A stretch of 13,257 nucleotides of DNA, from IMG/VR virus record IMGVR_UViG_2703719354_000002; one strand, written 5' to 3'. Source of the DNA: a virus. Lineage: Duplodnaviria > Heunggongvirae > Uroviricota > Caudoviricetes. The translations under genes and the position numbers were made by a program. Positions 1-13,257 of this stretch are shown here, piece after piece; position 1 is the first letter of the stretch; each line of letters begins with the position of its first letter. Under the pieces are notes generated by a model, which saw only the letters and a list, made by a program, of their open reading frames with translations, had not been told where the DNA came from and did no database searches.

Positions 1-995
1 AACGCAGCCTCTGCCTTAATCAGCATCTCCTGCGCGGTATCAGGACGACCAATATCCAGCACCGCATCCCACATGGATTTGAAGGCCCGCGCAGTCCTGT
101 CTGCCCAGGTCTCCAGCGTGCCCATGTTCTCTTTCAGGCGGCGGGTCTGGTCATCAAACCCTTTCGTTGCGGCCTCGTTCGCCGCCTGCAATGCCCCGGC
201 TTCATCGCCGGAACGCTGCAACTGAGCAACATACGCAATCTGCTCCGCCGTCACGTTATGGAACTGGCGTGCCATCGCCGTCAGCCCCGACGTCGGGTCT
301 GTGGTCAGCTTCCCGAAGGCTTCAGCGACCTTGTCCACCTCCACGCCGGATGCAGAGGAGAAACGCGCCACACTCTGGCTGATGGACGCAATCTGAGCCT
401 CACCGCTTACCCCCGCCTTAACCAGTGCGCTGAGTGACTCGCTGGTCTGGTTAAACGTCAGCCCTGCCGCCTGCCCGGCTCTGGACAGGACCAGCATACG
501 ATCTGCCGTCAGTCCCGCCTGATTGCCGGAAAGGACCAGCGTTTTGTTGAAATCGGACAGGGTTGAGTTGCCCTGATACCAGGCATACGCCAGCGCACCG
601 GTCGCCACCGCCAGCGAGGTGGCCCCCACCATCGGCAGGGTGATCGCACCGGCAAGCCCCCTGAACATGGGGATCATCCCGCCGAAGGAGTCCTTCACCT
701 GCCCCCCCTGTTGCAGCAGGATCAGCCACGGACTTTGCCCGCCTGCAAGCTGCGTGGCCACGTCGGTGAACTGTGCAGGCAGCATACGCATGGCGGCTTT
801 ATACTGCCCGACGGAAATCCCCGCTTTCTGTGCAGCCAGCGCCTGTCGGCTCAGCGACTGTTCAACGACTGCCGCTGTTTTTTTCGCATCACTTTCCGTA
901 CCGGAAAAATGACGCCTGACTCTGGCCATCTGCTCGTCAAATCTGGCCGCATCCAGACTTAAATCAACGACCAGATCGCCTACCGGTTCAGCCAT
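1..995 (-). CDS. H: Tail tape measure protein gpH, N-terminal ~331 codons; rest of the gene lies beyond the window start
   Basis: Reverse complement from the ATG at 993..995 translates to MAEPVGDLVVDLSLDAARFDEQMARVRRHFSGTESDAKK..., which I recognise as the lambda gpH N-terminus. Open to the window edge; sits directly downstream of T as in lambda. Not in the ORF track because it is truncated. Confidence 0.88.
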   Translation of the reverse strand, partial: MAEPVGDLVVDLSLDAARFDEQMARVRRHFSGTESDAKKTAAVVEQSLSRQALAAQKAGISVGQYKAAMRMLPAQFTDVATQLAGGQSPWLILLQQGGQVKDSFGGMIPMFRGLAGAITLPMVGATSLAVATGALAYAWYQGNSTLSDFNKTLVLSGNQAGLTADRMLVLSRAGQAAGLTFNQTSESLSALVKAGVSGEAQIASISQSVARFSSASGVEVDKVAEAFGKLTTDPTSGLTAMARQFHNVTAEQIAYVAQLQRSGDEAGALQAANEAATKGFDDQTRRLKENMGTLETWADRTARAFKSMWDAVLDIGRPDTAQEMLIKAEAA

Positions 996-1428
996 ACCGG
1001 ACTCCTCCTGCGATCCCTTCTGATACTGTCATCAGCATTACGTCATCCTCCGTCATGTCCGCCACATCCGGGGAAGCGGGGATAACTTCATTCCCGTCCG
1101 GGCCAAAGCGGACGCCTCCGGCAAGCCCTGCCGCTTTCTGCATCAGCACATCATCTTCAGGCTCTTCGTCAGCCTCACGCCGGTTCAGCAGACTGAAATC
1201 CAGCGGATGCATATCCGGATCGCTGAAAAACAGGCTGAGCACGGTGTACGTCAGCCCGGAAAAGTGCATATCCAGCAGAACATCATGAAAATAATGGGTA
1301 CTGTAAAAGCGGTGCCAGTCGGCATACTCCGTGGATGACATCCCGGCAAGCATGGCACGCCAGTCGGGTCGCCCCGTCTCGCGCGCCAGTTTCAGGGCAA
1401 AACTCAGCTCACCGTCGAACACTTTCCC
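988..1428 (-). CDS. T: T reading frame, expressed only as the gpG-T fusion (tail assembly chaperone) after a -1 frameshift from G
   Basis: Track ORF 988..1422 (...FDGELSFALKLARETGRPDWRAMLAGM...) is in the -1 frame relative to G and begins right at the slippery heptamer. Matches lambda gpT as recalled. Confidence 0.85.
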   Translation of the reverse strand, partial: GKVFDGELSFALKLARETGRPDWRAMLAGMSSTEYADWHRFYSTHYFHDVLLDMHFSGLTYTVLSLFFSDPDMHPLDFSLLNRREADEEPEDDVLMQKAAGLAGGVRFGPDGNEVIPASPDVADMTEDDVMLMTVSEGIAGGVRYG

Positions 1429-1826
1429 GCAGAAACAGGCTCTGCAGGCCCGGCGTCCTCTGCCTGTTCAGGGGCATCATTCACCACAAACTCATACATA
1501 CCGGACAGCCGGTACACCACGTTTTCAGCATGAGAAATTGCCTCTGTGGGCCAGGTGGTAAGCACTTCCTGCTCAATCTGTTTAACGGCTTCATTCATGG
1601 AAGGCTGCTTTGTCTTCTGCGGATGGTTATGCCACAGGGACATCGCCACCACAAAAGCACCGGTTCTGATGGCGTCTTCCACTGTAAACTTCCGGTTGCT
1701 GTCTGACTCCGCCTGTTCTGCCTGCCGTTTCATCAGGGCGAGATGCTCAATACGCTGCAGGGCTGAAAGTTCAGAAAGCGTGACGGTCACGCCGTTATGT
1801 TCAAATGATTCGGTTTTCAGGAACAT
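1404..1826 (-). CDS. G: Tail assembly chaperone gpG (140 aa)
   Basis: Track ORF of 140 aa (MFLKTESFEHNGVTVTLSELSALQRIEHLALMKRQ...). Length, position between V and T, and sequence match lambda gpG. Confidence 0.9.
   Translation of the reverse strand: MFLKTESFEHNGVTVTLSELSALQRIEHLALMKRQAEQAESDSNRKFTVEDAIRTGAFVVAMSLWHNHPQKTKQPSMNEAVKQIEQEVLTTWPTEAISHAENVVYRLSGMYEFVVNDAPEQAEDAGPAEPVSAGKCSTVS
1422..1428 (-). other. Programmed -1 ribosomal frameshift slippery heptamer G GGA AAG (G to G-T)
   Basis: Plus strand ctttccc is GGGAAAG on the minus strand, in phase X XXY YYZ with the G frame (..GCG GGA AAG TGT..), 6 codons before the G stop. Shifted frame reads GKVFDGELS..., the T frame. Confidence 0.85.
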
Positions 1827-1841
1827 CGCTGACTCTCCGGA

Positions 1842-2582
1842 TTAACTGTCGGTGACAGTGATTTCTGCAACCGCAGCAAGTTCACCATTACCGGATACGA
1901 CCGGAATGTTGACCTTGCCTGCAGCAACACCTTTCACGGTGATGGTCATACCACTGACCGACACGGTGGCTTTTGTTTTATCCGCAGACACCGCACGGAA
2001 GCTCTTGTCGGTTGCGCCTTCCGGCTGAAATGCCACGGTCAGCGTGGTGCTCTGCCCTTTCACCACCGAGGTGCTGGCAGGCGTCACGGTCATGCCGGTT
2101 GCCGCTGTGACCGTGCTGCGATCTTCTGCCATCGACGGGCGTCCCACATTGGTGACCTTCACCGTGCGGGTGATCACTTCCTTCGCCGTCACTGCTTTAC
2201 CGATACTGCTGACCCAGCCACGGAACACATCGACCGTGCCGTTCGGGAAGCGGATTTTATAGGCACGGGTATCACCTTCATTAAACCACGCCAGCAGCGC
2301 CTGCTGCCCCTGCTCTCCGGGCATCCACGCCAGCGTGAAGCTGGTATCTCCGGCTGATTTCTGCCCCTGCCCGGTCGCAGTCCAGTCCGCATCTTCATCA
2401 TCGAGATAGCTGTCGTCATAGGACTCAGCGGTCAGTTCGCCGGGCGTCAGGTCTTTAACTTTTGCCAGACGCGACCAGTCAACGTCTGAAAGCGGATTCG
2501 CATAAGGGTCACCGCTCCCCTTATAAACCCACAGGGTGGTCCCGGCACCTTTCACCGGCATTACAGGATTTGGTACAGGCAT
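1842..2582 (-). CDS. V: Major tail tube protein gpV (246 aa)
   Basis: Track ORF 1842..2612; the internal start [27 protein letters not shown]... at 2580..2582 gives 246 aa, the lambda gpV length. The C-terminal region is rich in T/V/S/G, consistent with an Ig-like domain. Confidence 0.9.
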
Positions 2583-2589
2583 AGCGTCC

Positions 2590-2985
2590 TCACATTTCAT
2601 AGGTAATGACATAAGTCAGATCGGCTGAACTCCACAGGCCCGCATCATCGTCGCGTCGGTAGTCATAGCCACTGGCCACCATACTGGTGATCAACTCTGA
2701 CAGTGCCGGGATATCGCTCATCACCGGATAAATCCGGGACTCCATCCACGCATCCAGCTCTGAATCCGGCACCTGAGCAGGCAGGAAAACTTCGATATGC
2801 AGCTCCGCCTGCCAGGTATCGCTGTCCAGCTCTTCGCCCGTGTATTCAGCGCCGGTGAGATAAACGGCAACTGCCGGAAAATCCGCCTCATCAAAAACAG
2901 CGGGGCGACCATCAAAAAACGTCGCCCCGGTGTCATGCTTCTCCAGTGCATCCAGTACGGCTGCACGGAGTTCAGTATGTTTCAT
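2590..2985 (-). CDS. U: Tail terminator protein gpU (131 aa)
   Basis: Track [36 protein letters not shown]...; length and position match lambda gpU. 4-bp overlap with the Z stop. Confidence 0.9.
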
Positions 2986-3560
2986 CGCTTTATTACCATC
3001 CTCAGTTGATGCTGCAGCGCATAGCCCAGCTCTTTCGGAAGACGTTCACGCCGTATCCGCTCAATATTTTGTTTAAACGCCGTGGTCAGCGGCACCGCCA
3101 TCGGGATTTTCACCACATCAATGGGGTAACGGTTTTTCCCGGCCACACGCTGCATAACATGCCACCGGCCATTTTTCAGTTGCTGAATAAACGCGCCGGG
3201 AATACGACGGTTACCCACCACAAGCACGCTGCCGCCACCTTTCAGGGATGAACGCTGCCCCTTTTTACGACGCCTGCGGCGCGAAAGGACAACCCGCGCA
3301 TTACCCAGCTTGATTACGGGCAAATCCCCCCGGTTAACCTTGATTCTGGCCTGCGGATTTTTGACCGTGGCCCTTTTCAGCCTGGCCCTTTCCTTTACCA
3401 GTTTCCGGCGTACCTTTGTCTCACGGGCAACCTGTGACACCGACTGCGATATCGCGGATGAAGCAACGCGGTTAATGGCCATTGCGGCGGCACCGGGCAC
3501 CGCCGTTCTGCTGATACGGCTGAGGTTTTCAACGGCCTGCTCAAGACCTTTTATGGCCAT
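2982..3560 (-). CDS. Z: Tail completion protein gpZ (192 aa)
   Basis: Track ORF MAIKGLEQAVENLSRISRTAVPGAAAMAINRV...; 192 aa as in lambda gpZ. Confidence 0.9.
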   Translation of the reverse strand: MAIKGLEQAVENLSRISRTAVPGAAAMAINRVASSAISQSVSQVARETKVRRKLVKERARLKRATVKNPQARIKVNRGDLPVIKLGNARVVLSRRRRRKKGQRSSLKGGGSVLVVGNRRIPGAFIQQLKNGRWHVMQRVAGKNRYPIDVVKIPMAVPLTTAFKQNIERIRRERLPKELGYALQHQLRMVIKR

Positions 3561-3925
3561 ACATCCCCCTTCCAGCGGCGACGGTTAACGGCAGGCGGTA
3601 CGCCCCGCCCAAGCCAGAGATGACAGCTTCCGCCATCATCCGGCGAAATCCGGTCTATCCAGAAGTTTTCCTCACCGATGGTCAGCGTGTCGCCGCGCCG
3701 CAGCTGCCGCACATCATCAGTCCGGACAAACAGGGACGGGCTGGAGCCTTCAACGCGCACGCCCTGTCCGGCATAGCTGATATTTTCAGGGTCATCAAAA
3801 ACACCACGTATCACAGCACCGGACTGCTCACCGGATGTCATGGTGGCTGACGTTCCCATGTACCCGCGTATCGTTTCATCGGCGCAGGCAATGGCAGCAT
3901 CGAACAGGTTATCGAAATCAGCCAC
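3551..3925 (-). CDS. FII: Head-tail connector protein gpFII (124 aa here; C-terminus overlaps the Z start)
   Basis: Track ORF MADFDNLFDAAIACADETIRGYMGTSATMTSGEQSG... matches lambda gpFII. The ORF reads on through ...NRRRWKGDVWP and ends inside the start of Z. Confidence 0.88.
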   Translation of the reverse strand: MADFDNLFDAAIACADETIRGYMGTSATMTSGEQSGAVIRGVFDDPENISYAGQGVRVEGSSPSLFVRTDDVRQLRRGDTLTIGEENFWIDRISPDDGGSCHLWLGRGVPPAVNRRRWKGDVWP

Positions 3926-3936
3926 AGCGCCTCCCG

Positions 3937-4332
3937 TTATTGCATTCTGGCCAGGCCGCGCTCTGTCATTTCAGCTGCCACACCGGCAGAGACACGGAAC
4001 GCCGTTCCCGGCAGCACAAATGCCACAGCCTCATCCCGCGTGGCGTGAAGTGCATCAGTATGCAGCGTCACCAGTGCCACAACCGTGACCAGATCAGCCG
4101 TATCAGTCACGGTATCCGGCTGCGCTGATACAACCTCATTTTCATGTCCGGTCAGCGCATTTTCCGGGCTGACAGATGTGTCCTGACCGGCAGCGTCATC
4201 CGTGTCATCAAGCTCCTCTTCCAGCTCTGCCACACGGAGTGCCAGTTCTTCTTTCGTCCCCGTCAGGCTGACATCACGGTTCAGTTGCTCACCCAGCACC
4301 TGAAGACGGGCAATCAGTTCATCTTTCGTCAT
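3937..4332 (-). CDS. FI: Head assembly / DNA packaging accessory protein gpFI
   Basis: The internal start MTKDELIARLQVLGEQLNRDVSLTGTKEELALRVAELEEELDD... (ATG at 4330..4332) of track ORF 3937..4371 matches lambda gpFI, with an acidic linker and conserved C-terminus ...GVAAEMTERGLARMQ. Confidence 0.88.
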   Translation of the reverse strand: MTKDELIARLQVLGEQLNRDVSLTGTKEELALRVAELEEELDDTDDAAGQDTSVSPENALTGHENEVVSAQPDTVTDTADLVTVVALVTLHTDALHATRDEAVAFVLPGTAFRVSAGVAAEMTERGLARMQ

Positions 4333-4373
4333 GGACTCCTCCACAGAGAGAAAATGGCCCCGAAGGGCCATGA

Positions 4374-5399
4374 TTACGCCAGTTGTACGGACACGAACGC
4401 ATCAGGGTCAGCCAGCAGCATCAGCGGTGCTGACTGAATCATGGTGAACTCACGCGCCGGATCGCCGGTGGTCACCCAGTTTTTCGGGTAGCGGGCAGAG
4501 GCGTTAATACCTTCGCGCTGTGCGTCCGCATCCTGAATGCAGCCATAGGTGCGCAGACCGCGTGCCTGAGTGTTCCCCAGCACCATCGTGTTGTCCGGAA
4601 GGAAGTTCTTTTTGACGTCGTTTTCCACGTACTGTCCGGAATACACGACGATCGCCGTATCGCCATACATCCCCTTATAGGACACCGCTTCGCCCAGGTC
4701 TTTTACCGCTGTCTCCAGCTCGGAATGAGAGCCGCGACGGGTATCCAGCTTCTCCTTGACGGCTTTGAAGGAACGGAACAGCGCCCAGCCTTTCGGATCA
4801 AACACGATGATATTCACCACACCGCTGGCGTTCAGCGCGTAGGCTTCGATATCGTCGGTCGGGTCATACGTGGACTTGTCACGCTTGCTCCACTCCGTAC
4901 CGCCGGACTGCGTGATGTTGTTCGCCACACTGCGGCCCATATCCACTTCAACCGGATCGAAGGCTTCACCGGTCATGGTGTATTTGCCCTTAAGCACGGC
5001 AGAAACTGCCTGCATCTCTTCGACCTGAGCAATGGCCAGCTCTTCGTCTCGCATGTTCTGCAGGATGATGCGACGGCGGCGGTAAGCCGGGTCCGCCAGA
5101 TTCTGTGGATCTTCATCCGGCAGGCGACGCAGGGTCATCTGCGGATTCACTTCATGCTTGGGTTTGACATATCCCGGCGTAAATTCAGAGGTGGAGCCGC
5201 CACGGGAGCGGATAACCTCACCGGAAACAATCGGCGAAACGTACAGCGCCATGTTTACCAGTCCCGGAATTTGTGAGAGATAGACTTTCTCCGTGGTGAA
5301 GGGATAGCTCTCACGGAAAAAGAGACGCAGAAACAGCGGATCAAACTTAAATTTCTGCTCATTTGCCGCCAGCAGCTGGGCGGTTGTGTACATCGACAT
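4374..5399 (-). CDS. E: Major capsid protein gpE (341 aa)
   Basis: Track ORF 4374..5426; the start MSMYTTAQLLAANEQKFKFDPLFLRLFFRESYPFTTEKVYLSQIPGLVNMALYVSPIVSGEV... at 5397..5399 gives 341 aa, the lambda gpE length and sequence. Confidence 0.92.
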   Translation of the reverse strand: MSMYTTAQLLAANEQKFKFDPLFLRLFFRESYPFTTEKVYLSQIPGLVNMALYVSPIVSGEVIRSRGGSTSEFTPGYVKPKHEVNPQMTLRRLPDEDPQNLADPAYRRRRIILQNMRDEELAIAQVEEMQAVSAVLKGKYTMTGEAFDPVEVDMGRSVANNITQSGGTEWSKRDKSTYDPTDDIEAYALNASGVVNIIVFDPKGWALFRSFKAVKEKLDTRRGSHSELETAVKDLGEAVSYKGMYGDTAIVVYSGQYVENDVKKNFLPDNTMVLGNTQARGLRTYGCIQDADAQREGINASARYPKNWVTTGDPAREFTMIQSAPLMLLADPDAFVSVQLA

Positions 5400-5413
5400 A
5401 AAAAAATCCCGTA

Positions 5414-5435
5414 AAAAAAGCCGCACAGGCGGCCT
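5414..5435 (-). terminator. GC hairpin followed by a U7 tract in the D-E intergenic spacer (terminator-like or attenuating RNA structure)
   Basis: Minus-strand RNA would read ..GGCCGCcuguGCGGCuuuuuuu. Plus strand shows gccgc(5421-5425) acag gcggc(5430-5434) preceded by aaaaaaa (5414-5420). It lies inside a late operon, so it is unlikely to be a fully efficient terminator. Confidence 0.4.
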
Positions 5436-5454
5436 TTAGTGATGAAGGGTAAGG

Positions 5455-5787
5455 TTAAACGATGCTGATTGCCGTTCCGGCAAACGCGGTCCGTTTTTTC
5501 GTCTCATCGCTGGCAGCCTCCGGCCAGAGCACATCCTCATAACGGAACGTGCCGGACTTGTAGAACGTCAGCGTGGTGCTGGTCTGGTCAGCAGCAACCG
5601 CCAGAATGCCAACGGCAGCACCGTCGGTGGTGCCATCCCACGCAACCAGCTTACGGGTGGCGGTGTCCAGCATCAGCGGGGTCATTGCAGGCGCTTTCGC
5701 ACTCAATCCGCCGGGCGCGGTTGCGGTATGAGCCGGGTCACTGTTGCCCAGCGGCTGGTAATGGGTAAAGGTTTCTTTGCTCGTCAT
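5455..5787 (-). CDS. D: Head decoration protein gpD (110 aa)
   Basis: Track ORF 5455..5793; the start [27 protein letters not shown]... (ATG at 5785..5787) gives 110 aa as in lambda gpD. Confidence 0.92.
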
Positions 5788-5796
5788 AAACATCCC

Positions 5797-6402
5797 TTAC
5801 ACTGGTGTGTTCAGCAAATCGTTAACGGCATCAGATGCCGGGTTACCTGCAGCCAGCGGTGCCGGGGCACCCTGCATCAGACGATCCAGCGCAGTGTCAC
5901 TGCGCGCCTGTGCACTCTGTGGTGCTGCGGCCAGAATGCGGCGGGCCGTTTCCACGGTCATACCGGGGGTTTCTGCCAGCACGCGTGCCTGTTCTTCGCG
6001 TCCGTGAGCCTCCTCACAGTTGAGGATCCCCATAATGCGGCTGTTTTCTGCCGCAACCGCTGCGGTGATCTGCGCGTTCACGTCCGGCTGCGCCGCGCTG
6101 GCGTTTTCGCCCTCCGTCGCTGGCACCACGTCAGTAACGTCAGCCTGCGAAGCAGTGGCTGAAACAGTTGTTGATTGAGTCTCTTTGGTCATTCGCCCTC
6201 CTGAGAGACGGGATTTACGTGCATCCAGTGCATCACGCATGACGGTGATCGCATCGGTGCTGTTAACAAGTTCATCAGCCAGTCCGGCATCAATGGCCTC
6301 CTGACCGCTGTACACTGCAGCCTCGGTATCCAGCACAGCCTGCACGGACAGGCCGGTATATGCCGACACCTTCTGCGCAAACATCTGGCGGGTTGCGTCC
6401 AT
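5797..6402 (-). CDS. Nu3: Scaffolding protein gpNu3 (201 aa), translated in frame from an internal start within C
   Basis: In-frame ATG at 6400..6402 gives MDATRQMFAQKVSAYTGLSVQ... and 201 aa sharing the C stop. This is the known nested C/Nu3 arrangement of lambda. Confidence 0.8.
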   Translation of the reverse strand: MDATRQMFAQKVSAYTGLSVQAVLDTEAAVYSGQEAIDAGLADELVNSTDAITVMRDALDARKSRLSGGRMTKETQSTTVSATASQADVTDVVPATEGENASAAQPDVNAQITAAVAAENSRIMGILNCEEAHGREEQARVLAETPGMTVETARRILAAAPQSAQARSDTALDRLMQGAPAPLAAGNPASDAVNDLLNTPV

Positions 6403-7096
6403 CCGGTACTGCAGTGTCTCCCGGACGTCATCCGGAAGATGGCTGTAGGGGTTGCCATCCACCTTATGGCTGCCGCTGTAAATCAGCGTGATTTCCACAC
6501 CCTGTTTCTCCAGCGCAGCACCGTAATTACTGTGAGCCATCATGACGCCGATGGAGCCTGTCCGGGCGGTCTGCGTGACCAGACGCCGGGAGGCGGCACT
6601 GGCAAGCAACTGACCTGCACTGCAGTTCATGTCGTTGGCAAGCGCCCATACCGGTTTTATGTCACGCACACGGGCGATGATGTCAGCGCAGTCAAATGCC
6701 CCCGCCACCATCCCGCCGGGCGTGTCCATATCGAGCAGAATGCCGTCCACCATCGGATCGCTGGCAGCCTGTTGCAGACGGGCGATAATGCCGTTGTAAC
6801 CGGTCATCCCCGAGTACGGCTGCAGCGCCCGCGTCCGGCTGACCAGCGTGCCGGACACCGGCAGCACGGCGATGCCGTTCATGACCTGATAACTGCGGGC
6901 CTGTCGTGGTCCGTCATCATCACCGGATAATGCCAGCGTCGCGAGTGCCTCCTGGGCAGTCAGGCTGTCGCCGGACACCGCATCCGTCAGGCGGCTGATC
7001 CCAAGCTGGCCTGCAAGCGCACAAAAGAAAACCCGCGCATAGGCGGGTTCAAGCATCAGCGGCTCATTAAAAGCCATGCTGGCAATATGCGGGAGA

Positions 7097-7116
<20 letters not shown>
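5797..7116 (-). CDS. C: Head maturation protease / scaffold gpC (439 aa, GTG start)
   Basis: Track ORF 5797..7251 contains the lambda gpC sequence starting at the residue translated V in VTAELRNLPHIASMAFNEPLMLEPAYARVFF..., codon GTG at 7114..7116. This gives 439 aa and a 20-bp overlap with the B 3' end, as in lambda. ClpP/SppA-like serine protease region present. Confidence 0.88.
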
Positions 7117-10797
<3,681 letters not shown>

Positions 10798-10823
<26 letters not shown>

Positions 10824-11343
10824 TCAGCAACCCCGGTATCAGTTCATCCAGCGCGGCTGCTTTGTTCATGGCTTTGATGATATCCCGTTTCAGGAAATCA
10901 ACATGTCGGTTTTCCAGTTCCGGAAAACGCCGCTGCACCGACAGGGGGATCCCGTCGAGAATACTGGCAATTTCACCTGCGATCCGCGACAGCACGAAAG
11001 TACAGAATGCGGTTTCCACCACTTCAGCGGAGTCTCTGGCATTTTTCAGCTCCTGTGCGTCGGCCTGCGCACGCGTAAGTCGATGGCGTTCGTACTCAAT
11101 AGTCCCTGGCTGGAGATCTGTCTCGCTGGCCTGCCGCAGTTCTTCAACTTCCCGGCGCAGCTTTTCGTTCTCAATTTCAGCATCCCTTTCGGCATACCAT
11201 TTTATGGCGGCGGCAGAGTCATAAAGCACTTCATTACCCTTGCCACCACCCCGCAGAACGGGCATTCCCTGCTCCTGCCAGTTCTGAATGGTACGGATAC
11301 TCGCGCCGAAAATGTCAGCCAGCTGCTTTTTGTTGACTTCCAT
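10798..11343 (-). CDS. Nu1: Terminase small subunit gpNu1 (181 aa)
   Basis: Track ORF MEVNKKQLADIFGASIRTIQNWQEQGMPVLRGGGKGNEVLYDSAAAIKWYAERDAEIENEKLRRE... matches lambda gpNu1: N-terminal winged-HTH, C-terminal gpA-binding tail, and a cosB immediately upstream. Confidence 0.95.
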
Positions 11344-11520
11344 TGTTCATTCCACGGACAAAAACAGAGAAAGGAAACGACAGAGGCCAAAAAGCTCGTT
11401 TTCAGCACCTGTCGTTTCCTTTCTTTTCAGAGGGTGTTTTAAATAAAAACATTAAGTTACGACGAAGAAGAACGGAAACGCCTTAAACCGGAAAATTTTC
11501 ATAAATAGCGAAAACCCGCG
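11344..11520 (-). promoter_or_regulatory. cosB, lambda-type terminase small-subunit binding region (R1, R2, R3 with an AT-rich IHF-like spacer)
   Basis: Three GGAAACG-core elements at about 11371..11384 (aaggaaacgacaga), 11409..11423 (inverted, ctgtcgtttcctttc) and 11471..11482 (aacggaaacgcc), with an AT-rich segment at 11437..11465 between R3 and R2. Reverse complement matches the lambda left-end sequence with a few substitutions. Confidence 0.85.
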
Positions 11521-11532
11521 AGGTCGCCGCCC
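11521..11532 (-). other. cosN copy 1: 12-nt cohesive-end sequence (GGGCGGCGACCT on the phage strand)
   Basis: Plus strand aggtcgccgccc is the reverse complement of the lambda cohesive end GGGCGGCGACCT. Flanked by a lambda-like left end on one side and lambda-like right-end DNA on the other. Confidence 0.9.
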
Positions 11533-11731
11533 CGTAACCTGTCGGATCGCCGGAAAGGACCCGCAAAATGATAATAATTATCATCTACATGTCACAACGT
11601 GCATCTACGCCATCAAACCACGTCAAATAATCAATTATGACGCAGGTATCGTATTAATTGATCTGCGTCAACTTAACGTAAAAACAACTTCAGACAATAC
11701 AAATCAGCGACACTGAATACGGGGCAACCTC
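11533..11731 (-). other. Phage right-end (cosQ-containing) DNA adjacent to cosN, lambda-like with substitutions
   Basis: Reverse complement reads ...GAGGTTGCCCCGTATTCAGTGTCGCTGATTTGTATTGTCTGAAGTTGTTTTTACGTTAAGTTGA..GCAGATCAATTAATACGATACCTGCGTCATAATTGATTATTTGACGTGGTTTGATGG...GGTCCTTTCCGG.GATCCGACAGGTTACG, which matches the lambda right terminus as recalled with scattered mismatches. Homology to lambda stops near 11731. Confidence 0.75.
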
Positions 11732-11926
11732 ATGTCAACGAAGAACAGAACCCGCAGAACAACAACCCGCAACATCCGCTTTCCTAACCAAATGATTGAA
11801 CAAATTAACATCGCTCTTGAGCAAAAAGGGTCTGGGAATTTCTCAGCCTGGGTCATTGAAGCCTGCCGTCGGAGACTAACGTCAGAAAAGAGAGCATATA
11901 CATCAATCCAAAGTGATGATGGATGA
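11732..11926 (+). CDS. Small (64 aa) ribbon-helix-helix-like putative DNA-binding protein, copy 1
   Basis: Track ORF MSTKNRTRRTTTRNIRFPNQMIEQINIALEQKGSGNFSAWVIEACRRRLTSEKRAYTSIQSDDG: basic N-terminal arm, a short beta-strand-like NIRF, then two helices split by a KGSGN loop, typical of the Arc/MetJ/CopG fold. It may belong to the small YlcI/YnfO-like proteins found next to cos in E. coli lambdoid prophages, but that is from memory and unverified. Confidence 0.6.
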   Translation: MSTKNRTRRTTTRNIRFPNQMIEQINIALEQKGSGNFSAWVIEACRRRLTSEKRAYTSIQSDDG

Positions 11927-12074
11927 ACATCCCGGTTTCTTCCACCATCGCACCGGAAAAGCGACTATGAGGGTAACCCTGCGTCTGTCAGCACAGTAAA
12001 ACCCGGTGTGCATCGTTTTTGATTATTCCCGCACACTCACGCAGAAGGAATTCCCCGTCGGGCTACGGTCATGG

Positions 12075-12488
12075 TTAATGCGGGAATACGGCGACGATAC
12101 AGCGCAAAAACTGTCGCTGCATGGATAAAGGGATGGAATCAAGCGTACTGGATAACGCCATTGCCAGCTTACTGAGGGCAAAAATACAGAACCCGGTGTC
12201 AATAAGTTTTCCTTTTGACACCTCATTTTTTAACTGCTGTGTAACAGCCTGTTCTGCTGTCAGTTCCCATCTGGCAATAAGCAATTTCTCCTCATAGTCG
12301 TCTTCGCTATCGCCATCAGGCACATCGTTTTTACTTCTCCTCAGATACGATATGTAAAAATCGCGCCAGGCATCCAGATCCAGTTGCCCTCGCTTATTCG
12401 ATATCGGGGCACCCGGCAATTTCTGCAATCTGCGAAGCTGGCGATCGGTCAGACTTAAATGCCTGGCAACTTCAGTCTGCGTAGCCAC
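12075..12488 (-). CDS. Divergent, C-terminally truncated Nu1-like small terminase paralogue (137 aa, GTG start)
   Basis: Track ORF MATQTEVARHLSLTDRQLRRLQKLPGAPISNKRGQLDLDAWRDFYISY...DTGFCIFALSKLAMALSSTLDSIPLSMQRQFLRCIVAVFPH. Compared by eye with this window's own Nu1, the winged-HTH pattern and the central block align (ETAFCTFVLSRIAGEIASILDGIPLSVQRRF vs DTGFCIFALSKLAMALSSTLDSIPLSMQRQF), but the protein ends 9 aa after that block. GTG start at 12486..12488 preceded by GAGGTGAGGAG. Confidence 0.65.
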   Translation of the reverse strand: MATQTEVARHLSLTDRQLRRLQKLPGAPISNKRGQLDLDAWRDFYISYLRRSKNDVPDGDSEDDYEEKLLIARWELTAEQAVTQQLKNEVSKGKLIDTGFCIFALSKLAMALSSTLDSIPLSMQRQFLRCIVAVFPH

Positions 12489-12535
12489 TCCTCACCTCGC
12501 AAAAACTCTCACCTCACAATCACAACAAAACCGGT

Positions 12536-12634
12536 CATGTCCGGTTTACATGTCTGTTTTTTGTTCATGTCCGGTTCACAGAAGACCTGTTTTTATATTT
12601 TTCATATAGTTAACTTGAAGAGATACCGGACATG
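12536..12634. repeat. Three copies of the 9-bp motif CATGTCCGG (two direct, one inverted; 30 and 60 bp apart) between cosN copy 2 and the Nu1-like gene
   Basis: catgtccgg at 12536..12544 and 12566..12574 on the plus strand; ccggacatg at 12626..12634. It occupies the position where cosB sits relative to the first cos. Confidence 0.6.
12590..12620 (-). promoter_or_regulatory. Candidate sigma70-like promoter for the Nu1-like gene (weak -35 TTCAAG, 16-nt spacer, -10 TATAAA)
   Basis: Minus strand reads ttcaag-ttaactatatgaaaaa-tataaa. Judged by eye only; the -35 is a poor match. Confidence 0.25.
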
Positions 12635-12671
12635 GATCCCGGAAAATTTTCATAAATAGCGAAAACCCGCG

Positions 12672-12683
12672 AGGTCGCCGCCC
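12672..12683 (-). other. cosN copy 2, identical 12-nt cohesive-end sequence
   Basis: Second aggtcgccgccc, exactly 1151 bp from the first, inside the second repeat copy. Same right-end flank and the same 33 bp of left-end flank as copy 1. Confidence 0.85.
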
Positions 12684-12882
12684 CGTAACCTGTCGGATCG
12701 CCGGAAAGGACCCGCAAAATGATAATAATTATCATCTACATGTCACAACGTGCATCTACGCCATCAAACCACGTCAAATAATCAATTATGACGCAGGTAT
12801 CGTATTAATTGATCTGCGTCAACTTAACGTAAAAACAACTTCAGACAATACAAATCAGCGACACTGAATACGGGGCAACCTC

Positions 12883-13077
12883 ATGTCAACGAAGAACAGA
12901 ACCCGCAGAACAACAACCCGCAACATCCGCTTTCCTAACCAAATGATTGAACAAATTAACATCGCTCTTGAGCAAAAAGGGTCTGGGAATTTCTCAGCCT
13001 GGGTCATTGAAGCCTGCCGTCGGAGACTAACGTCAGAAAAGAGAGCATATACATCAATCCAAAGTGATGATGGATGA
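12883..13077 (+). CDS. Small ribbon-helix-helix-like protein, copy 2 (identical to 11732..11926)
   Basis: Track ORF with an identical 64-aa translation; lies within the second repeat copy. Confidence 0.6.
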   Translation: MSTKNRTRRTTTRNIRFPNQMIEQINIALEQKGSGNFSAWVIEACRRRLTSEKRAYTSIQSDDG

Positions 13078-13257
13078 ACATCCCGGTTTCTTCCACCATC
13101 GCACCGGAAAAGCGACTATGAGGGTAACCCTGCGTCTGTCAGCACAGTAAAACCCGGTGTGCATCGTTTTTGATTATTCCCGCACACTCACGCAGAAGGA
13201 ATTCCCCGTCGGGCTACGGTCATGGTTAATGCGGGAATACGGCGACGATACAGCGCA

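Follow-up and report, generated by a model that had tools for sequence, protein, structure and literature searches.

Two packaging modules around one shared cos core

We analyzed a stretch of 13,257 nucleotides, hereafter the window, from the IMG/VR virus record IMGVR_UViG_2703719354_000002 (Caudoviricetes). It represents the late region of a lambda-type prophage, encoded on the minus strand from the tape-measure gene (H) through E, D, C, B, W and A to Nu1, and toward its high-coordinate end it carries two cohesive-end (cos) sites of the same orientation, spaced 1151 bp apart and with unlike cosB flanks. The initial annotation of this DNA had described the arrangement as an exact 1151-bp tandem duplication. 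Our comparisons did not demonstrate such a duplication and resolved the region into two packaging modules, each ordinary in itself, with a conserved cos core in common and one new junction, at 12106/12107, between them. Positions 12107-13257 match a prophage type of enterohemorrhagic Escherichia coli (EHEC), exemplified by NZ_CP031919 (locus L001) and NZ_CP148277 (L002), and positions 1-12106 match a prophage of O26 Shiga-toxin-producing E. coli (STEC; L006) and lambda-like phages such as Turner. The features of the two-cos region are the following.

11488-12106: cos core, copy 1 (R), comprising I2, cosN, cosQ and ylcI/ynfO and ending at a natural mosaic boundary; identical to 12639-13257 and colinear with Turner and L001
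11521-11532, minus strand: cosN 1, the 12-nt cohesive-end sequence GGGCGGCGACCT; exact match to lambda
11556-11562, minus strand: cosQ 1, GGGTCCT (AGGACCC on the given strand); located where cosQ is annotated in phage 434
11732-11926, plus strand: ylcI/ynfO (DUF3950), copy 1; Pfam DUF3950 E = 2e-20, annotated as YlcI/YnfO in L001 and L006
12075-12488, minus strand: chimeric open reading frame (ORF) of 137 aa, with residues 1-127 (of 169) of the EHEC-type small terminase subunit TerS' followed by 10 residues from the cos core, according to the translations
12106/12107: the only novel junction in the alignments, GCGCA/AAAACTG, where the end of the cos core is joined to codon 127 of terS'
12536-12634: cosB' of the EHEC-type prophage; sites conserved in L001, L002, ML35 and PhiR12_1
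12639-13257: cos core, copy 2, identical to copy 1 and cut by the window end at the base homologous to 12106
12672-12683, minus strand: cosN 2, the same 12-nt sequence; exact match to lambda
12707-12713, minus strand: cosQ 2, GGGTCCT; heptamer match
12883-13077, plus strand: ylcI/ynfO, copy 2, identical to copy 1; from the ORF list

Self-comparison of the window confirmed the annotated identity of 11488-12106 with 12639-13257, which extends over 619 bp without a mismatch, and also the presence of the cohesive-end 12-mer in each copy, where the plus-strand AGGTCGCCGCCC is the reverse complement of the lambda cohesive end. Toward lower coordinates the identity ends at once (A at 11487, C at 12638), and toward higher coordinates it is cut by the window end, which makes 619 bp a lower bound for the length of the repeat. 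With 1151 plus 619 bp, 1.54 units are visible and the window stops inside the second unit. An exact repeat of 619 bp cannot have originated by chance. Tandem Repeats Finder reported no repeat in the region, because the period of 1151 exceeds the longest period of 500 that it considers. Both cos modules passed the tests for a lambda-like cos, as they possess the cohesive-end 12-mer, a cosQ, and cosB R sites with a terS gene alongside, which at cos2 is truncated at codon 127; by every sequence test that can be applied they belong to the lambda-like cos family, and cleavage at both is predicted.

As the initial annotation had observed, the left flanks of the two copies differ, with lambda-type R3/R2/R1 sites and Nu1 beside copy 1 and a three-site array and a Nu1-family ORF beside copy 2. 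A tandem duplication would be expected to show one novel end-to-start junction, and the junction at 12106/12107 is of this kind. However, the flanks of the array matched two natural phage types and no parent possessing both flanks was found, which is not what a local duplication would leave. The view that two same-orientation cos sites at such a distance are abnormal was well founded: 77 of the 80 IMG/VR loci that carry this terS had exactly one cosN within their flanks, and none had two.

The second module is that of a common EHEC-type prophage

Positions 12107-13257 were colinear with a prophage of the EHEC type that is very common, and differed from it at 1-2 positions (in the case of L002, 1 mismatch in 1151 bp); in this type the gene order is terL, a terS of 169 aa, its own cosB, cosN, ylcI/ynfO, the Rha gene and the lysis genes. 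The 169-aa protein is known as a terminase small subunit (WP_000235436 / WP_052893166), and the type also occurs in phage PhiR12_1. A probe across the terS' part matched 1,289 of the 5,426 complete E. coli genomes. The "novel motif array" of the initial annotation is thus the cosB of a widespread prophage type and its "Nu1-like gene" corresponds to the first 127 codons of the terS of that type; neither should be carried forward as a discovery.

In cosB', two copies of CATGTCCGG (12536, 12566) are separated by an A+T-rich spacer from the inverted CCGGACATG at 12626, which is 38 bp from cosN 2. Beside this cosN-proximal site the window has a private T at 12624, where four aligned natural sequences have A; the same position was A in all 35 IMG/VR loci with a matching flank (of the 80 loci). 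The EHEC-type module therefore has the same three CATGTCCGG sites, cosN, cosQ and ylcI as 12107-13257, but there terS runs on to its C-terminus and to terL, whereas in the window it stops at codon 127 and the cos core follows.

TerS' showed 47% identity to Nu1 only from residue 73 onward, and the N-terminal part was devoid of similarity, as expected because the cosB specificities differ. The match of the chimeric ORF to the Pfam profile Phage_Nu1 ends at position 140 of 164, and the truncation lies where the alignment with Nu1 (residue 140) enters the C-terminal part of Nu1. The C-terminal region of lambda TerS binds TerL (PMC6739421). As judged from its sequence, the TerS' fragment would retain the DNA-binding and central parts and lack the TerL-binding C-terminus, and most simply it would be a dead stub.

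Such an architecture is reminiscent of the cos-type phage-inducible chromosomal island (PICI) EcCICFT073, which naturally has two lambda-like cosQ/cosN sites and whose Rpp is a TerS-related protein lacking the TerL-binding part and adjoining a non-helper cosB (PMC6739421). A satellite-like redirection of packaging, by which a TerS' without TerL-binding tail, together with cosB', would divert or block the terminase of a co-resident phage, could be read from the TerS-like DNA-binding protein next to a cos with non-helper cosB, from the position of the truncation at the entry to the C-terminal part, and from the two cos sites. The likeness is superficial, however, and we regard this function as highly improbable. 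The DNA of the fragment is 99.8-99.9% identical to that of an ordinary full-length terS plus cosB, indicating a fresh truncation and no evolved gene, and the 10-residue tail derives from non-coding core sequence. Besides, the chimeric ORF had no significant match to any PDB sequence, RppC included, no similarity to Rpp and no PICI backbone were found, and the PICI genes int, alpA and primase are missing from the window, whose content is limited to lambda late genes, ylcI and the terS stub. The gene-position index did not contain the exact 137-aa chimeric protein, whether V or M was taken as first residue.

The junction and the window end coincide with the end of the core

The junction at 12106/12107 is blunt and devoid of microhomology, and because both natural phage types share the 619-bp core, a single novel join accounts for the whole arrangement. 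Its two sides are of different nature. The terS' side lies in the middle of a gene where natural copies are continuous: in 1,279 of the 1,289 genomes with this terS' the probe was covered across this point, and among the matches listed from these genomes none stopped at the terS' breakpoint. Position 12107 was accordingly rejected as a natural mosaic or terS' truncation point. The A at 12107 is a rare allele, as G was found in all 74 readable IMG/VR loci (of 80) and A in three complete genomes.

In contrast, the core side of the junction lies exactly on a natural mosaic boundary. Prophages of the Rha type (L001, L002, L007 and the record L016 described below) and of the iss/bor type (Turner, 434 and the O26 prophage) were identical as far as ...GATACAGCGCA and unrelated thereafter; the sequence following the base equivalent to 12106 is TAATGTG... 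in the Rha type and GCTAAAAGG... in the iss/bor type. This natural divergence makes 12106 a branch point in any assembly graph. The last base of the window, 13257, is the base homologous to 12106. The initial annotation had named a window that ends at a contig end as an observation that would speak against its own reading, and in form this is what was found, since the window terminates at the base homologous to the junction base and at the same natural branch point. An end at a graph branch point provides strong evidence that a draft contig stopped here and that its genome of origin harbors several lambdoid prophages.

Other origins of the join were considered and rejected. A microhomology-mediated duplication might have used the 9-nt AAAACTGTC, which in Rha-type phages lies 41 nt past the core end and matches the start of the terS' fragment, but a join at that place would retain 41 nt that the window lacks. 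An insertion sequence (IS)-mediated rearrangement was discarded, as the window is free of IS sequence although O26 relatives carry an IS3-family element in the core. A laboratory vector, considered in view of BamHI and EcoRI sites near the boundaries, was likewise dismissed, both sites being natural in prophages and the region being only ~98% identical to lambda.

Two further features were observed near the junction. L001 7191-7203, at the 3' end of the Rha gene, and window 12107-12119, at the start of the terS' fragment, share a 9-nt exact match (12 of 13 positions), AAAACTGTC(N)CTG, and on the minus strand both encode Q-(G/R)-Q-F, a likeness that may be due to chance. By eye, an inverted repeat of 10 bp, TATTCCCGCA ... 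TGCGGGAATA, its arms ~45 nt apart (12024-12033 / 12079-12088, and again 13175-13184 / 13230-13239), was recognized ~20 nt short of the point where conservation of the cos core ends; it could be related to the recurrence of a mosaic boundary at the core end.

The two-cos arrangement is a singleton

A 241-bp probe spanning the junction was covered by no record among the 5,426 complete E. coli genomes, 50,697 phage records and 72,556 plasmids (PLSDB), and a 35-mer over the junction was not matched exactly anywhere in IMG/VR, the GTDB species representatives (one genome each) or the JGI metagenomes. This absence from public collections speaks only indirectly to whether the join existed in the DNA. 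The exact portal protein of the window occurs in 423 blocks of the collection, and the long contigs returned with it all had one cos and none had the junction. The initial annotation had proposed a search for the unit as an independent element, and none was found in IMG/VR, the GTDB representatives, the JGI metagenomes or the plasmids.

The latter result bears on a true tandem array of the 1151-bp unit, or a free cos-bearing circle or multimer, whose graph loop was threaded onto a prophage contig and from which terminase cuts would free cohesive-ended monomers of 1151 bp. A graph loop leading from the core through the intervening segment T and back to the core would be equally compatible with such molecules, and copy 2 stops with the 32 nt that in copy 1 supply the 3' end of the chimeric ORF, so that the sequence might continue into a third junction. 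On the other hand, nothing is visible past 13257, the unit lacks a replication origin or maintenance function (its only ORFs are ylcI and the terS stub), and an interval of 1.1 kb is not normally excised in packaging, given the dependence on head filling that is generally assumed. Together with the lack of an independent element, these points make an array or a circle very unlikely.

The lambda-type late region and the alleles of copy 1

The lambda-type module next to cos1 includes the following features.

8898-10823, minus strand: terL, lambda gpA-type large terminase, 641 aa; from the ORF list, colinear with the annotated terminase large subunit in L006 and Turner
10798-11343, minus strand: Nu1, lambda-type small terminase, 181 aa, cognate to cos1; full-length match to Pfam Phage_Nu1, E = 5.5e-101
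11368-11483: lambda-type cosB, with inverted repeat, R cores and lambda spacing

Within this cosB, R1 (~11368-11386) and R2 (~11408-11424) form the 26-nt inverted repeat I1, R3 is located at ~11468-11483, and GGAAACG / CGTTTCC cores are present at 11373, 11413 and 11474. These positions agree with that of lambda R3, bp 50-65 (PMC9026076). Like phage lambda (cosQ-cosN-cosB, Nu1/gpA), cos1 has the cohesive-end 12-mer, cosQ, the spacing of R3/R2/R1 and adjoining Nu1 and A; lambda has one cos, whereas the window has a second cosQ-cosN located 1151 bp upstream in packaging direction. A structured RNA at 11365-11427 was rejected, as the sole Rfam match was mir-578 with 25.6 bits versus a gathering score of 98 (E = 0.08), a spurious match produced by the R1/R2 inverted repeat.

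Positions 1-12106 were 99.8% identical to the O26 STEC prophage L006, and the late region showed ~98% identity to lambda-like phages, among them PhiR11_1 and Turner; over 11300-12106 the window was colinear with Turner with 5 mismatches, and the cosB stretch had no mismatch to L006. Of the 20 sites that differ from L006, 5 fall within the 619-bp core, and the 2.7 kb ahead of it are free of differences. Both copies of the core were 100% identical to the core of L001 and L002, and the differences from L006 therefore mean that copy 1 carries the alleles of the other prophage type. On the sequence evidence, these alleles would fit the consensus of a collapsed repeat, and they would also fit a real block of EHEC lineage, provided that another crossover had taken place within the initial 100 bp of the core.

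Several side observations were made in this region. A stretch of ~1 kb at the W/portal boundary (7811-8842) contains 12 of the 20 differences from L006 and 8843-11587 contains none, representing a small mosaic patch. In several O26 STEC genomes (L008, L011, L012, L013) an IS3-family element (annotated IS1203) is inserted in the cos core at ~window 11989, between ylcI and iss/bor, and the same O26 prophage has ISCro1 (IS66-family) inserted in the region of the S49 peptidase (gene C). No class of sequences with a sharp natural boundary at the left end of the window, in the tape-measure gene, was found.

The core is a multi-copy repeat in E. coli genomes

When a 1,958-bp probe (core plus flanks) was used, 4,823 of the 5,426 E. 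coli genomes matched, the number of places per genome having a median of 2 and a maximum of 14. Two properties expected for a repeat artifact are hence present in the window: a copy that abuts the sequence end at the repeat boundary, and a repeat that is multi-copy in genomes of this kind. The initial annotation had taken perfect identity of the copies as a sign of a recent event or an artifact. As a sign of recency it did not hold, for the same core is 100% identical in the unrelated L001 and L002, and a repeat collapsed in a de Bruijn graph assembly is identical by construction, so the identity of the copies says little on this point; the possibility of an artifact, in contrast, gained ground from the position of the window end.

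A free-standing version of the region is found in NZ_CP148748.1 (L016, pZ1322HEC0010-3), listed in RefSeq and PLSDB as a non-mobilizable 'circular plasmid' of 14,065 bp and 98% identical to the window. It contains lambda-type late genes only, from a tape-measure fragment to A, Nu1, cos, ylcI, Rha, a lysis protein and lysozyme; its positions 235-12341 correspond to window 1-12106 and no replication genes are annotated. It looks like a collapsed prophage repeat that was circularized by the assembler, and suggests that assemblers can release this region as a repeat contig of its own. Two other small 'plasmid' records, NZ_CP069918.1 from Klebsiella oxytoca (15,740 bp) and CP088504.1 from E. coli (16,997 bp), have 100% matches to the rightmost 108-117 bp of the cos core and may be further phage-fragment or contaminant records.

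Origin of the two-cos arrangement

For the join at 12106/12107, a product of assembly or concatenation has about an even chance of being correct and is slightly favored over a real hybrid prophage. In the sequence of events that we propose, a STEC-like E. coli with several lambdoid prophages would have given a draft contig that ends in this window. The path of the contig would have passed twice through the collapsed multi-copy 619-bp cos core (I2-cosN-cosQ-ylcI), to which the lambda-type module (A, Nu1, cosB) and the EHEC-type fragment (cosB' and 127 codons of terS) were attached. Most likely, then, the apparent tandem duplication would be a route through a repeat, and the junction would have been made by assembly or joining and not be carried by a phage. 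An assembly join explains why junction and window end both lie on the core boundary, the blunt break in the middle of a gene and the singleton status of the arrangement. We infer that the join was made by assembly and not in a cell; what is directly observed is the anatomy of the region and the fact that its one junction falls on a natural branch point, to which the window end corresponds as well, and recurs in none of the collections searched.

Several points weigh against an assembly join. No natural polymorphism that would break a contig at 12106/12107 was found, apart from the A/G site at 12107. Blunt concatenation of contigs without N spacers is uncommon. Moreover, de Bruijn assemblers need the k-mers of a junction in the reads, which, for the commonest assemblers, would imply that at least some DNA molecules or chimeric reads carried the join, and a path of unique - R - T - R - stop, with T for the segment between the cores, would be the paired-end output expected for a real R-T-R with R also present elsewhere.

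The latter two points would favor a real hybrid prophage, formed by one non-homologous join between two co-resident lambdoid prophages, either through a deletion between prophages of the same orientation or through unequal illegitimate exchange. The product would be a lambda-type structural arm with cos1, preceded in packaging direction by cos2 with the foreign cosB' and the dead terS' stub. Such an origin would agree with the number of junctions, since a lone deletion or exchange produces just one, and with a terS' fragment that represents a definite lineage and no mixture, as seen from the private base at 12624 and the rare A at 12107. Nevertheless, only about one in hundreds to thousands of random illegitimate events would be expected to hit a pre-existing mosaic boundary with single-base precision on the core side, the additional crossover in the first 100 bp of the core would be required for the alleles of copy 1, the two-cos arrangement is a singleton across all collections searched, and the hybrid structure would disappear during lytic growth. 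On balance, a hybrid prophage is a serious contender whose probability stays somewhat below one half. Be it an assembly join or the scar of an isolated recombination event, the arrangement does not represent a novel class of element.

Expected packaging behavior of a real two-cos prophage

In lambda, initiation requires cosN and cosB, termination requires cosQ and cosN and is apparently independent of cosB, the terminases of lambda and 21 terminate at each other's cos, and processivity requires all three subsites (PMC4669245). The order of elements in packaging direction in the window is cosQ2-cosN2-cosB'-terS' stub-ylcI-cosQ1-cosN1-cosB(lambda)-Nu1-A. If the junction were real, the Nu1/A terminase would be predicted to initiate only at cos1, where its cognate cosB is located, and to terminate at cos2 of the next unit, the first cos met on the concatemer. 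Most packaged genomes would then lose the 1151-bp segment and regain a single cos, whereas onward packaging from cos2 would be poor because cosB' is not cognate. With the segment being lost at packaging, the arrangement could persist only as a prophage.

The initial annotation had predicted two classes of termini and the release of a 1151-bp fragment. By the lambda rules the two classes of termini are plausible, but the fragment is not expected as a main product, for terminal cos cleavage reportedly depends on head filling, as is attributed to Feiss and Siegele, and a cut 1.1 kb after the start is therefore not expected. Lambda phages with a duplicated cos, and packaging experiments with helpers and tandem prophages, are said to have been described by Emmons in 1974 and by the Feiss laboratory. 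These laboratory phages likewise have two cos sites of the same orientation on one chromosome, with an outcome predictable from the subsite rules, but they contain engineered or selected copies of a single cos region, whereas the window has cosB of two specificities in a putative two-cos structure.

The specificity cassette exchanged in lambda-21 and lambda-N15 hybrids consists of cosB and the DNA-binding 5' part of terS (PMC4669245), and window 12107-12638 together with I2 represents the same kind of cassette. The hybrids carry the cassette in place of their own, fused in frame to the 3' end of the resident terS; the window, in contrast, has it next to a complete Nu1 module, and its terS part continues into non-coding sequence. 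It is conceivable but unlikely that the junction is real and that the differently specified tandem cos sites, a lambda-type cos serving for initiation and a foreign cosQ-cosN-cosB' with a TerL-blind TerS' stub upstream of it, are a natural intermediate in a switch of packaging specificity, or a decoy that captures termination or titrates the terminase of a co-resident phage. If this were the case, further recombination between the central homologous parts of terS' and Nu1 would generate a chimeric terS like those of lambda-21 hybrids.

If the arrangement is a product of assembly, it is a cautionary case, as cos cores common to co-resident lambdoid prophages can mimic duplicated packaging sites in draft genomes. 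Should it be real, nature would have produced a rare equivalent of the laboratory cos-duplication phages, with a predictable packaging outcome, and the arrangement would offer a snapshot of cosB/terS specificity cassettes moving among lambdoid phages, with no new mechanism involved.

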